A stretch of DNA of 16,564 nucleotides, from positions 1 to 16,564 of the forward strand of contig JBCCXZ010000072.1 in assembly GCA_039190745.1 (NCBI GenBank), given 5' to 3'. Positions 3,333 through 16,564 of this stretch are shown here, in pieces. Within the stretch, counting starts at the first letter, position 1, and every line of letters starts with the position of its first letter. The notes below the pieces were generated by a model. It was not told the origin of the DNA and searched no databases. It saw only the letters and a program-made list of their open reading frames with translations. This stretch comes from Planctomycetota bacterium. GTDB taxonomy: Bacteria > Planctomycetota > Planctomycetia > Pirellulales > Lacipirellulaceae. The position numbers and the translations under genes were made by a program.

Positions 3333-3704
3333 CTATCCCTGCGGAAAAATCTCAACTGCCCCGCCGCGATTCGCCTCAACCCGCAGCCGGCTGCCCTCCA
3401 GTAGTGACATCCCAGCCAATGGAAAGGAATCCGAAAGTGCCGCCTCGACACGCCGCACGTTTCCGAACCACTCTAACTGGATTAGGTAGACATCAAAGAC
3501 AGCCAGACTCCCATCTGCAAGCAGAGCGCGCTCGCTCCCAATGCGATCGGCGCCAAGGCTAACGAGTATTGGTTCCGGCAGTGTCAGCGAACCATTGAAT
3601 CCCGTATCGATGATCGCTTGCGTGACTCGAGTCTCGCCATCGCCATCCAACAGCCGCAACTCAACTATCGGTTGGAGGTCGCTGCTGACCCGCCCTTCGA
3701 TCAT
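3333..3704 (-). CDS. Clan AA (retropepsin-like) aspartic protease, AF_0612-like
   Basis: 123 aa with AIIDTGFNGSLTLP (catalytic DTG), LADGS and a C-terminal LAGMSLL motif. The start overlaps the upstream stop (ATGA at 3701-3704). Confidence 0.85.
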   Translation of the reverse strand: MIEGRVSSDLQPIVELRLLDGDGETRVTQAIIDTGFNGSLTLPEPILVSLGADRIGSERALLADGSLAVFDVYLIQLEWFGNVRRVEAALSDSFPLAGMSLLEGSRLRVEANRGGAVEIFPQG

Positions 3705-3970
3705 GCGGTCCGCCCCGGCGAGCGAGGGCCGAATCGATGCACCGCGGGAGAGCCAACCCTCACGAAAAACGCTTCCGTCCCAGGCAGCTTTTGCCTCAAA
3801 GCGTCCGAAGCCGCAACAACATCGGCCCCCAATGCGTAATCGCCGCTGGCCACATCGATCGCGACAACGAGCCCCTCGTGCTGCTCATCGAGCACAGGAC
3901 GGATCCGCTCCTCGAAGATCGCAGACCCTCGGCTCGCCAGACTCTCTTTATCAGATTGCGTATCAGACAT
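3701..3970 (-). CDS. Small hypothetical protein (DUF5678-like) translationally coupled to the aspartic protease
   Basis: 89 aa with the pattern G.VVAIDV.SGDY.LG.D...A...LR...P......VRVG. GAGGT SD at 3976-3980 (minus) and an ATGA overlap with the next gene. Confidence 0.75.
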   Translation of the reverse strand: MSDTQSDKESLASRGSAIFEERIRPVLDEQHEGLVVAIDVASGDYALGADVVAASDALRQKLPGTEAFFVRVGSPAVHRFGPRSPGRTA

Positions 3971-11694: not shown

Positions 11695-11988
11695 TTGCAC
11701 ATCATCACTCGCAAGGCGCTGAAAGACTTCTGGGAGAAGCACCCGCAGGCCGAAACACCGCTCAGGGAGTGGTTCCGCGTCGTCCGGCAATCCGAGTGGA
11801 AAGGCTTCGCTGAACTGAGGCAGACCTACCCCTCAGCCGACCAAGTCGGGCGGTGCACCGTTTTCAACATCGGCGGCAACAAGTATCGCTTGGTCGTTCG
11901 CATCCAATTCAAATACAGCAAAGTCTACATCCGTCGAGTGCTCACCCACGATCAATACGACCGAGACGATTGGAAAGGGGACTGCTGA
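11695..11988 (+). CDS. higB: Type II TA toxin, HigB family mRNA interferase
   Basis: HIITRKALKDFWEKHPQAETPLREW...W..FAELRQTYPSAD.VG...VFNIGGNKYRLV..I......VYIR.VLTH..YDR..WK. TTG start. Confidence 0.93.
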   Translation: MHIITRKALKDFWEKHPQAETPLREWFRVVRQSEWKGFAELRQTYPSADQVGRCTVFNIGGNKYRLVVRIQFKYSKVYIRRVLTHDQYDRDDWKGDC

Positions 11989-12425
11989 TGCCTTCGTCAA
12001 AACGCACCGACGCCGACGAGTACCTCAAACTCGTCGCCGAGCACCCGCTCCGCCCGATCACCAGCGAGGCGGCCCTGCGGGGGGCGACCCGCATGATGCA
12101 CTCGTTGCTCGACCGGAAGTCGCTGTCGAAGGCCGCCGAAGACTACCTCGACGTCCTCTCTGACTTGGTAGAGAAGTACGAAGAGGCCCGCTACCCGATC
12201 GGCCCCGGAAGCGACGCCGACCTTCTACGCCACCTGATGGACGCCCGGGGCATCACCGCCGCGGAGTTGGCCGAGCACACCGGCATCGTCAGCTCGACGC
12301 TCTCGAATGTGATGACCGGCAAACGGTCGCTCAACCGGGACCACATCGGGGCTTTGATGGGCTTCTTCCACGTCCCCGCTGGTGTTTTTGAGTTCGGCAC
12401 GCGCGTGAACCGTCAGGCCAGTTAG
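11988..12425 (+). CDS. higA: Type II TA antitoxin HigA (C-terminal Xre HTH)
   Basis: TGATG overlap with the toxin stop. PLRPITSE...[17 protein letters not shown] followed by the [40 protein letters not shown]. Confidence 0.92.
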
Positions 12426-13976: not shown

Positions 13977-13983
13977 GCAGTTG

Positions 13984-14166
13984 GACAGGATAACAGGATG
14001 AGCAGGATAGACAGGATGTCGATCCCCGCCCGATCTAGCCGCACGGGGAAATCAGACCTTCTACGAGGTCCGGAGCACAGGGGTCAAAACCCCTCTCCCT
14101 TCATCCTGTCGATCCCCTCTATCCTGTTATCCTGTCAATTCTTCGTGTCTTCGTGCCTTAGTGGTT
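13984..14166. repeat. (CAGGAT)x4 inverted-repeat element enclosing three hairpins, plus an orphan outer arm
   Basis: Left 13984-14018 GACAGGATAACAGGATGAGCAGGATAGACAGGATG; right 14102-14136 CATCCTGTCGATCCCCTCTATCCTGTTATCCTGTC (29/35 complementary); then TTCTTCGTGTCTTCGTGCCTTAGTGGTT at 14139-14166. Confidence 0.85.
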
Positions 14167-14179
14167 CAACCAAGCAGCC

Positions 14180-15058
14180 ATGACCGACGAGCCCTGGACC
14201 ATCGGCCGGCTGCTGAACTGGACGACCGAGTTCCTCACCGAAAAGGGCTCGGCAAGTGCCCGGCTCGACGCCGAGGTGCTGCTCGCCCACGCCCGGGGTT
14301 GCCAGCGGATCGAGCTCTACACCGCCTTTGAAGAAACCGCCGGCGACGACCTCCGCGCAAGCTTCCGAGAGCTGGTCCAACAACGGGCCGCCGGCAAGCC
14401 GGTCGCCTACCTCGTCGGCCACCGCGAGTTCTTCTCGCTGAGCTTCCGCGTCACGCCCGACGTGCTGATCCCCCGGCCGGAGACCGAACAGCTCGTCGTT
14501 CGCGCGCTCGACATCGCCAAGGAAGCGGGCAGCACATCGCTCCGCATCGCCGACATTGGCACAGGCAGCGGCGTCCTCGCGGTCTGCCTCGCCAAGCACC
14601 TCCCCGAGGCCGCCGTCACCGCGACCGACATCAGCCCCGCTGCCATCGAGGTCGCACGCCGGAACGCCGCCGATCACGGCGTCGACGACCGCATCGAGTT
14701 TGTGGAAGCCGACCTGTTCGGCCAGCTGCCCGCCGAGCCCGCATTCGATCTGATCGTCAGCAACCCGCCCTACATCACCACGGCCGAGATGGCGGAGCTC
14801 GACCCCGGCGTGCGCGACTACGAACCCCATGCCGCGCTGCACGGGGGAGGGCAGGGCACCGACGTCATCGAGCGACTGCTCCCCGCCGCCGCCGAGCGCC
14901 TCCGCCCCGGCGGCCGCCTGCTGATCGAAGTCAGCCCCGCCACCGCCGGCCCCGCCGCCTCGCTTGCCGAACAAACCCCGGGCCTGACGCACGTGGAGAC
15001 ACACGCCGACCTCGCCGGCCACCCGCGGGTTGTCGAGTACCTTCGCGAAGAAGGTTAA
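14180..15058 (+). CDS. prmC: Release factor glutamine N5-methyltransferase
   Basis: RLDAEVLLAH, PVAYLVG.REF, VLIPRPETE, SAM motif DIGTGSG, VSNPPY and YEP..AL.GG..G. Directly downstream of prfA. Confidence 0.97.
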   Translation: MTDEPWTIGRLLNWTTEFLTEKGSASARLDAEVLLAHARGCQRIELYTAFEETAGDDLRASFRELVQQRAAGKPVAYLVGHREFFSLSFRVTPDVLIPRPETEQLVVRALDIAKEAGSTSLRIADIGTGSGVLAVCLAKHLPEAAVTATDISPAAIEVARRNAADHGVDDRIEFVEADLFGQLPAEPAFDLIVSNPPYITTAEMAELDPGVRDYEPHAALHGGGQGTDVIERLLPAAAERLRPGGRLLIEVSPATAGPAASLAEQTPGLTHVETHADLAGHPRVVEYLREEG

Positions 15059-15629
15059 ACCACGGAGGCACAGAGGACACAGAGGAAGAAGCGACAGGAT
15101 AACGGGATCAGCAGGATTGACTGGATGAATGGAATTCGGTTGACTCGTTAACACTCGAATCAGTAGGTGCCTTTAGAGATGGTAACTGCCGAGCAATTGC
15201 GATTACGTATTGAAGCCGAGATCGGAGGCGATTGGTCATGCACGAACGGCCACGGCTGTGACCTTCGACAGTGTTTATTCGAACCTGAAAAGCAGTTGTT
15301 TGAGGATTCTGATAATCCACTTTGGCTGCTACTTGAAGAGGATCCGGTATCTCGCGACGGATACAAAGTGGTCTACGACGAATCGACCGGCATGTTCGGG
15401 CTTGCCTGCCGATTCATGTCTGGCCGCAACGGTTACCTCGGTCCGTACGGCGACACTTTCCTTGAGGCATTTAAAGCCATGTGATAACCGATCAAACCAA
15501 GCCTTCTCAATCGATGCCAAGTCTCTGAACCTTCCTGGGCAAGACAGCTATACGATCGATCCTGTAGATCCTGCAAATCCTGTTATCCTGTCCTCCCCTC
15601 TTCTCCGATCTCTCCGGGCCTCCGTGGTT
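15058..15629. mobile_element. Putative non-autonomous element: nested double inverted repeats enclosing one cargo gene
   Basis: Outer arms 15058-15089 (AACCACGGAGGCACAGAGGACACAGAGGAAGA) and 15599-15629 (reverse complement AACCACGGAGGCCCGGAGAGATCGGAGAAGA; terminal 12 bp perfect). Inner arms 15093-15127 and 15558-15592 (28/35 complementary). The repeats are directly visible; mobility is inferred. Confidence 0.55.
15179..15484 (+). CDS. Hypothetical acidic protein (101 aa), cargo of the inverted-repeat element
   Basis: ATG 15179 to TGA 15484 fills the space between the repeat arms. Protein-like sequence (LWLLLEEDP...GYKVVYDE..GMFGLA...YLGPYG.TFLEAFKAM) with many A/T-ending codons unlike the flanking genes. 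Confidence 0.75.
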   Translation: MVTAEQLRLRIEAEIGGDWSCTNGHGCDLRQCLFEPEKQLFEDSDNPLWLLLEEDPVSRDGYKVVYDESTGMFGLACRFMSGRNGYLGPYGDTFLEAFKAM

Positions 15630-16564
15630 AATCCCCAACCACCACCACACAAATCGGCGAAGGCACAAACACCGACCCGTGCGTCTGATACGCCAGCTCG
15701 CCCGTCTTGCCGTCGACCGCAAACACCGTCAGCGTGTTGCTATCCCGCCCCGCCGCCAATAACCAACGGCCCGTCGGGTCGAGATTAAAGTTCCGCGGCC
15801 AGCTCCCGCGGATCGGCTCGTTCTCCACGTGGGCGAGCGTGCCGTCCTGCGGGTCGATGCGGAACACGCTCACTGTGTCGTTGCCCCGGTTCGCCGTGTA
15901 GAGGAACCGTCCGCTCGGGTGCATACGCACCTCCGAGGCGCTGTTGAACCCCTCTTTCGCCTTCGCCGATTCGGGCAGCGTCTCGATCGTCTGCACGGTC
16001 GCCATCGTGCCCGCGTCGGCGTCGTACCCGAACACGGTCACCGACAGGATGAGCTCGTTCAGCACGTAAGCGAACCGCCCGTCGGGCGAGAACTTCATGT
16101 GCCGCGGCCCGCCGCCCGGCGGCGTCTCCGCGTAGCCGTGCTCAGAAAGCTTCGCCGCCTCCGTATCGAGCCGATAGATCAGCACCCGGTCGGCGCCCAA
16201 GTCCGGCACGAACACAAACCGGTTGTCCGGTGAGGTGCCCACCCAGTGCGGGTGCGGCGCCTCCTGGCGGCTGGCCAAAACGCCCGAGGCGTGGCTGTGC
16301 TCAGCCAAGTGCGACCGCGGCCCGATCGATCCGTCCTCTCCCAACGGGAAAACGGCGACCGACCCCCCGCCGTACTGCGCGGTCATCAGCACCTTGCCGC
16401 TGCGGTCGGTCGCCAAGTGCGCCGCCCCGCCGTCGCCGACCGGCTGCGACCCCATCGGCTGCAGCCGCGGACGCCCGTCCACCCGCTCCACGCGGAACGC
16501 CGACACCGACGGTTCGCCCCTGACGTTCCCCACCGAGTACAGCACCGCCCCGCCGGGGTGCATG
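15628..16564 (-). CDS. pgl: 6-phosphogluconolactonase-like lactonase (cycloisomerase 2 family beta-propeller), 3' part
   Basis: AQYGGGSVAVF, RQEAPHPH, VPDLGADRV, GGGPRHMKF, YVLNEL, SEVRMHPSGRFLYTANRG and GSWPRNFNLDPTG. The reading frame is open to the window end. Confidence 0.88.
   Translation of the reverse strand, partial: MHPGGAVLYSVGNVRGEPSVSAFRVERVDGRPRLQPMGSQPVGDGGAAHLATDRSGKVLMTAQYGGGSVAVFPLGEDGSIGPRSHLAEHSHASGVLASRQEAPHPHWVGTSPDNRFVFVPDLGADRVLIYRLDTEAAKLSEHGYAETPPGGGPRHMKFSPDGRFAYVLNELILSVTVFGYDADAGTMATVQTIETLPESAKAKEGFNSASEVRMHPSGRFLYTANRGNDTVSVFRIDPQDGTLAHVENEPIRGSWPRNFNLDPTGRWLLAAGRDSNTLTVFAVDGKTGELAYQTHGSVFVPSPICVVVVGD

Follow-up and report, generated by a model that had tools for sequence, protein, structure and literature searches.

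A foreign gene inside nested repeat arms between prmC and pgl of a planctomycete: a possible nuclease-less GxxExxY cassette with a replaced interior

The window analysed here (the whole stretch of DNA, 16,564 nt) belongs to a 3.89-Mb Lacipirellulaceae genome, G000, with 65% GC and 95.5% completeness. Its right end carries two host genes: prmC (14180..15058, plus strand; PrmC_N and MTS domains) and a pgl-like lactonase gene (15628..16563, minus strand; PF10282), which reaches the contig end. A preliminary description saw a symmetric nested unit between the stops of these two genes, and a direct reading of the sequence confirms it. On the left, an outer arm of family A (15056..15088, plus strand), made of three 8–9-nt units and a purine tail, is followed by an inner arm of family B (15093..15126, plus strand). 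Then come a foreign gene (15167..15484, plus strand; 105 aa from the GTG at 15167 or 102 aa from the ATG at 15176), the right inner arm of family B (15559..15592, minus strand) and the right outer arm of family A (15597..15630, minus strand). The stop codons of prmC (15056–15058) and pgl (15628–15630, minus strand) each overlap the end of an outer arm.

The arms are less regular than first described. The outer pair has the perfect 12-nt terminal match claimed for it (15058–15069 and 15618–15629) and the first unit of its right arm is perfect, but units 2 and 3 of that arm are degenerate. The inner arms were described as four CAGGAT units each; all four are exact on the right, but only two of four on the left. 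The strand asymmetry stands: purines make up a fraction of 0.71 of the left arms but 0.31 of the right arms. Aligned to the reverse complement of the right arms, the left arms score 70 (58 of 77 columns), against a mean of 19.9 and a maximum of 38 in 2,000 composition shuffles, and folding pairs the arms around the gene (z of −3.5 as plus-strand RNA, −3.4 as DNA and −4.6 as minus-strand RNA).

A sibling site lies 1 kb upstream, between prfA and prmC (13980..14172): a B pair without a gene (13980–14142) plus a lone right A arm (14139–14172), with a fold z of −7.8. In the sister species G001, which we compared over 2.4 of its ~4.9 Mb, the right half of this site is kept and the left is other DNA. 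Elsewhere in the window, a family D arm pair without a gene (1649–1856) sits between two divergent genes and is also found in G001; a HigB toxin and HTH antitoxin pair (11695–12425) lies upstream of rpmE–prfA–prmC; and two small minus-strand ORFs (123 and 89 aa) without a clear Pfam match occupy 3333–3970, at a junction that differs by 750 nt in G001.

The enclosed gene has a GC of 0.52 and a GC3 of 0.56, against a GC3 of 0.87–0.94 in prfA, prmC and pgl, in keeping with the low GC reported for it. It is not an orphan in the strict sense, as had been supposed: seven database homologues exist at 46–75%, and further ones occur in genomes and metagenomes. These homologues stand singly behind varied housekeeping genes, for example purE and sat/cysC, and none of 44 homologue loci, some with short flanks, carries arms (the count omits L049, L089 and L090, which have short matches; alignment A2 omits L064 and L080). 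The gene is single-copy in G000; a search of 119 further genomes of the bacterial family did not find it, and viral contigs yielded no homologue. Neither the protein nor 30 members of its family match Pfam. Its structure is predicted confidently, with a pLDDT of 92.7; Foldseek against the PDB returned nothing at E 0.001 or better, VIA-align gave a best Z of 5.2 (3d5p: Z 3.6, rmsd 4.8, 87 aligned), and its atlas neighbours are auto-named SMI1/KNR4 (SUKH), though below the naming bar. No toxin neighbour was seen among 56 ORFs flanking the homologues, many of them unassigned, and an immunity role is a lead only.

Both arm types recur throughout the genome, mostly in pairs. Our first catalogue holds about 14 arm unit families (A, the outer one here, B, the inner one here, C, D, E, I, K, M and others), and a profile search found 315 arms in G000, against 4 once that genome was reversed, and 167 in the compared 2.4 Mb of G001. 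Same-family pairs in G000 face inward in 102 cases and outward in 7, and 94 of the 102 enclose at most 250 nt. Of the eight longer pairs, two hold GxxExxY genes and two are the A and B pairs of the foreign gene; the others are a B pair around a 144-aa phosphatase-like gene, a D pair around an 80-aa ORF, a C pair that encloses no ORF and a J pair of 1.5 kb, probably two arms that have nothing to do with each other. B arms are present in 55 of 81 family genomes.

The arms are non-palindromic, purine-rich tandem arrays, not short palindromes of the REP type, and the interiors of their pairs differ from copy to copy, with neither a shared interior nor a fixed length. In all nine families tested in G000, the arms of one pair are as like each other as they are to arms of other sites; the own pairs of A-armed GxxExxY cassettes do score higher (49 against 40), but in a comparison that crosses genomes. 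Conservation to the family motif accords better with arrays of protein-binding sites than with a hairpin under selection, and we infer that the arms are putative arrays of this kind, the stem between them probably being a by-product. Array length can vary: a left A arm in G045 is expanded to ~11 tandem units (L355:76-190), against three at the same junction in G074. In addition, two REP-like palindromic hairpin types are often found in the loops of arm pairs (L095, L098, L102 and L226 in G001, and the matching sites in G000, although G000 has no Y1 transposase match).

Nested arms follow an order. Across 71 distinct adjacent arm junctions in G000 and G001, which are not independent events because left and right arms and shared sites were counted separately, the order is never reversed: A lies outside I 27 times, A outside B 13 times, B outside I 11 times, E outside I 10 times, D outside G four times and E outside B twice, with four single cases. 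The order may not be universal, given a B arm seen by eye outside an M-like cassette in G071. The linkers between nested arms are purine-rich and site-specific in sequence. The order may be a record of time or a targeting rule.

The expectation that a nuclease gene would co-occur with the arms was borne out, for A and B alike, by the GxxExxY family (PF13366). Arms adjoin all PF13366 genes in the two genomes, six in G000 and four in G001; one of them is cut by a contig end. No A- or B-armed gene was found among these 10; the nearest is an M-armed gene of G000 (L033), placed among the A-armed ones in the tree. GxxExxY genes are present in 75 of 81 family genomes, and in a tree of 40 of 43 genes (L270, L037 and L325 omitted) A arms box 13 and B arms box three (L287, L323 and L324), the latter forming one clade with support of 100/99. 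Arm labels change 12 times on this tree, against 24.5 times when shuffled; because kin share labels, and because the three B-armed genes all lie at one host junction and so are not independent, this shows clustering, not co-evolution. In G003, 45 of the 46 B pairs listed are short, one holds a GxxExxY gene and none boxes a foreign gene. The prmC–pgl unit therefore has arm families that box GxxExxY genes elsewhere, yet encloses a gene without a Pfam match: it is a nuclease-less copy, and its interior of 439 nt compares with ~400–450 nt in real B cassettes with GxxExxY.

Of the other enzymes proposed for the arms, two kinds were not found in G000: at its 95.5% completeness there is no match to PF01797, the Y1/HUH transposase family, and a search for reverse transcriptases gave none. 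The genome has 10 matches to PF00589 (tyrosine recombinase), unclassified, and one GIY-YIG match, in a 478-aa frame, with no small GIY-YIG gene found. The relevant entry of PMC3424549 gives PF13366 as of function unknown, and a literature search, mostly of non-subscription journals and of texts without supplements, found no link of GxxExxY to repeats. Seen by eye, GxxExxY cassettes occupy the same host junction in several genomes or genera (L269, L270, L272 and L278; L262, L268 and L277; L032 and L276), which by analogy with RAYTs suggests long vertical retention. Two further observations concern other armed genes. PF05635 four-helix-bundle genes in G001 (L041, L042) have short-unit inverted arms of their own, which belong to families outside the profiled set, and no such genes were found in G000. 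At L321:997-1699 (G000 C44), hybrid C and K arms surround a ~200-aa ORF with a PD-(D/E)XK-like motif, judged by eye; this is absent in G001, which keeps the C arm only.

The sister species carries a differently loaded allele of the prmC–pgl site, one of the possibilities raised at the outset. Next to a prmC that is 91% identical, the left outer arm and the end of the right outer arm are both shared by G001; between them lie ~100 nt of different sequence, in which there is an I-family half arm but neither a gene nor a B arm. Because the outer arms are shared with G001 and the interior is not, the earlier suggestion of two elements, one inserted inside the other, fits. Two species were compared here, so the direction of change at this site is not fixed by them.

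The same kind of exchange is seen at other sites. The two species could be compared at 84 orthologous arm sites: the families agree fully at 28 and partly at 8, they are swapped at 5, and 43 sites are one-sided, some of which may be swaps because the profiles covered the families of the first catalogue. Anchors were lacking for 96 of 174 sites in G000 and for 27 of 91 in G001, and 21 sites fell at edges. One swap can be polarised: a K-armed GxxExxY cassette found in G000 and in another genus (L032, L276) has given way to a gene-less A>I composite in G001. At 16 short empty sites, the filled allele does not preserve the spacer of the empty one, and by eye there is no target duplication; this points to replacement, although the two species are only ~85% identical in aligned DNA. 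Differences of at least 250 nt occur at 21 of 86 arm-bearing junctions and 51 of 688 armless ones, an enrichment confounded by the length that arms themselves add and by their preference for junctions that tolerate insertion; most gene-sized junction differences (51) involve no arms.

Foreign genes are boxed by arms in about 3 of 102 pairs in G000 and in none of 50 in the compared part of G001. A second B-boxed foreign gene, at L319:2640-3181 (G000 C9), is phosphatase-like (PF22785, PF00782) and has an M arm outside it on the right only. When 12 of its 21 homologues were examined, four, at three junctions, proved to be boxed by A- or M-like arms, one of them marginally (32 against a null maximum of 31), compared with 2 of 2,787 host-like ORFs in G000; two others, seemingly at the same junction as a boxed one, are armless. 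Since these homologues are boxed by other families, floating genes repeatedly end up between arms without a fixed arm family. A third candidate, at L322:827-1445 (G000 C81), has a left B arm and a degenerate right B arm around a 162-aa ORF with no Pfam match. No syntenic match to the C9 or C81 regions was found in the compared 2.4 Mb of G001.

Our best reading, to which we give a probability of roughly one half, is that the prmC–pgl unit is a nuclease-less GxxExxY cassette whose interior was replaced, likely after a cut by a nuclease acting in trans. The observations establish what the arms are, that the site has a second allele, that both arm families are linked to GxxExxY genes, and that swapping occurs at many sites. 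On this reading the outer A arms would be older than the divergence of the two species. A nuclease of the GxxExxY type, provided in trans, would bind to the arm arrays, recognise them and cut there; repair of the break could then take up incoming DNA or other arms, replacing the interior. At prmC–pgl, the interior would have been refilled by a second arm pair holding the foreign gene. The arms would act as points of entry that can be used again, and the gene would be a passenger whose insertions elsewhere are armless. A wider version, which we put forward only tentatively, is an undescribed system in which each nuclease clade opens its own arrays, and newer arm families and foreign genes enter older arms in a fixed hierarchy, so that the arms would be dispersed sites of gene capture without an integrase.

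Three alternatives dispense with part of this scheme. In the first, which we consider doubtful, the site is a passive hot spot: arms that spread by themselves accumulate at junctions tolerant of insertion, spacers and small genes are exchanged there by homology-assisted illegitimate recombination, and the foreign gene came to lie between the B arms with no nuclease step. Segment replacement is common in bacterial variation, as the consulted part of PMC2884548 describes it, and the homologues of the foreign gene, single and armless behind varied housekeeping genes, behave as this account expects. So do several sites where arms in one species correspond to an armless, small, low-GC foreign gene in the other. 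A locus in G001 shows what gene-end-anchored uptake would leave behind: at L228:4440-5610 (C4), a 164-nt direct duplication, comprising the last ~119 nt of a uvrA-like gene and a B arm, encloses a hairpin and, by eye, an antitoxin/PIN-toxin-like pair, followed by a 226-aa low-GC membrane ORF, where G000 is armless; the duplication looks like such uptake. The passive account leaves the unreversed nesting order at the 71 junctions unexplained, however, and it sits poorly with the finding, at several independent junctions, of foreign genes in the middle of inward arm pairs when so few host-like ORFs are boxed.

In the second alternative, close to the delivery unit originally proposed, gene and B arms came together at another locus and then entered the older A pair as a single cargo element, with a B-clade GxxExxY nuclease acting in trans. 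The size of the interior, in line with that of real B cassettes, the arrival of both B arms with the gene (both are absent in G001) and the existence of a second B-boxed gene in G000 would all suit such an element. It is nevertheless unlikely: the homologues are armless at all 44 loci, the gene is single-copy and was not found in the other 119 family genomes, homologues of the second cargo bear different arm families, and the arms of one pair are no more alike than those of different sites. Nor did excised circles, which had been suggested as a check, leave a trace: the contigs of X1, the probable source run, contain no excision joint, a weak test since it covers contigs only, and the sole joint there at 92% likeness is explained by the other B arm in the same contig. 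An X3 contig that skips 15084–15610, with 118 other letters, is probably from the G001 organism, and we did not treat it as an independent case.

The third alternative, an RNA-level device in which a stem in read-through transcripts lets the insert be processed out or terminates the convergent genes, with selection keeping the symmetry, is highly improbable: the arms do fold around the gene as originally proposed, 99 of 257 outer arm ends start between −15 and +25 nt of a host stop codon (a count with no control set) and genes of the intervening-sequence ORF family PF05635 in G001 also adjoin repeat arms, but there is no sign of a selected ssDNA or RNA stem, with G–U wobbles numbering 97 in the sense and 126 in the antisense direction, no co-variation within pairs, arms conserved to the family motif and not to the partner, no Rfam match, no terminator-like site and nothing found in a promoter and terminator scan.

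Non-autonomous elements with inverted ends that are mobilised in trans are familiar as MITEs and as cargo-carrying IS derivatives. The arm pairs differ from these in having no shared interior, no fixed length, ends that are unmatched within a copy and no visible target duplication, and in that native spacers appear replaced, not interrupted. The closest known systems are REPIN–RAYT systems, REPtrons and TIRtrons (PMC3337134, PMC3733652, PMC3116915, as described in the excerpts consulted). The portions of these sources describing REPIN–RAYT show several likenesses: intergenic inverted doublets with variable spacers and mostly gene-less copies (PMC3337134, PMC3733652), several families side by side, each with a small nuclease gene of its own that is flanked by the repeat of that family, and some nuclease loci common to several genera. 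The enzyme, by contrast, is here a PD-(D/E)XK protein of the GxxExxY type, and G000 has no Y1 transposase; the arms are built as tandem arrays and not as palindromes; hybrid or nested pairs occur often, whereas the consulted text on SBW25 reports no hybrid REPINs (PMC3337134); and interiors are replaced and can hold foreign genes.

Similar partial matches are found with two other systems. Ssn with its NTS/SRM repeats, as the consulted sections of PMC11893778 present it, resembles the arm system in that a small nuclease gene of a single domain lies between copies of its own repeat, with many copies scattered elsewhere, and a role in DNA uptake and recombination has been proposed for it. Ssn is, however, a GIY-YIG enzyme that cuts ssDNA hairpins (PMC11893778, same sections), whereas the armed nucleases here are PF13366, and the arms, arranged in tandem arrays, lack any complementarity specific to a pair. 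ORF-bearing 23S rRNA intervening sequences (S23p/PF05635), in the part of PMC4990558 consulted, likewise place a small ORF in the loop of a long, imperfect stem; here the site lies between protein genes, the ORF is unrelated, and neither selection for RNA-level pairing nor an Rfam match was detected. By the enzymes that define them, the arm system is neither REPIN–RAYT nor Ssn–SRM, and it differs from both in arm build, hybrids, nesting and replacement. What the prmC–pgl locus adds is the nesting of two arm families around a non-nuclease gene, the alternative allele at the same site, the ordered nesting and evidence that genes are not tied to their arms.

PF13366 is a widespread family of predicted nucleases with no known function, and arm families that track its clades offer a candidate DNA substrate for each enzyme. 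If the arms do take up foreign genes, as the prmC–pgl site and the second gene family suggest, they would constitute a route of acquisition that needs neither a transposase nor an integrase, and bacteria would also possess a range of small nucleases, each with its own short target. Should the passive reading hold instead, the prmC–pgl site would be an ordinary variable spacer decorated by selfish repeats.
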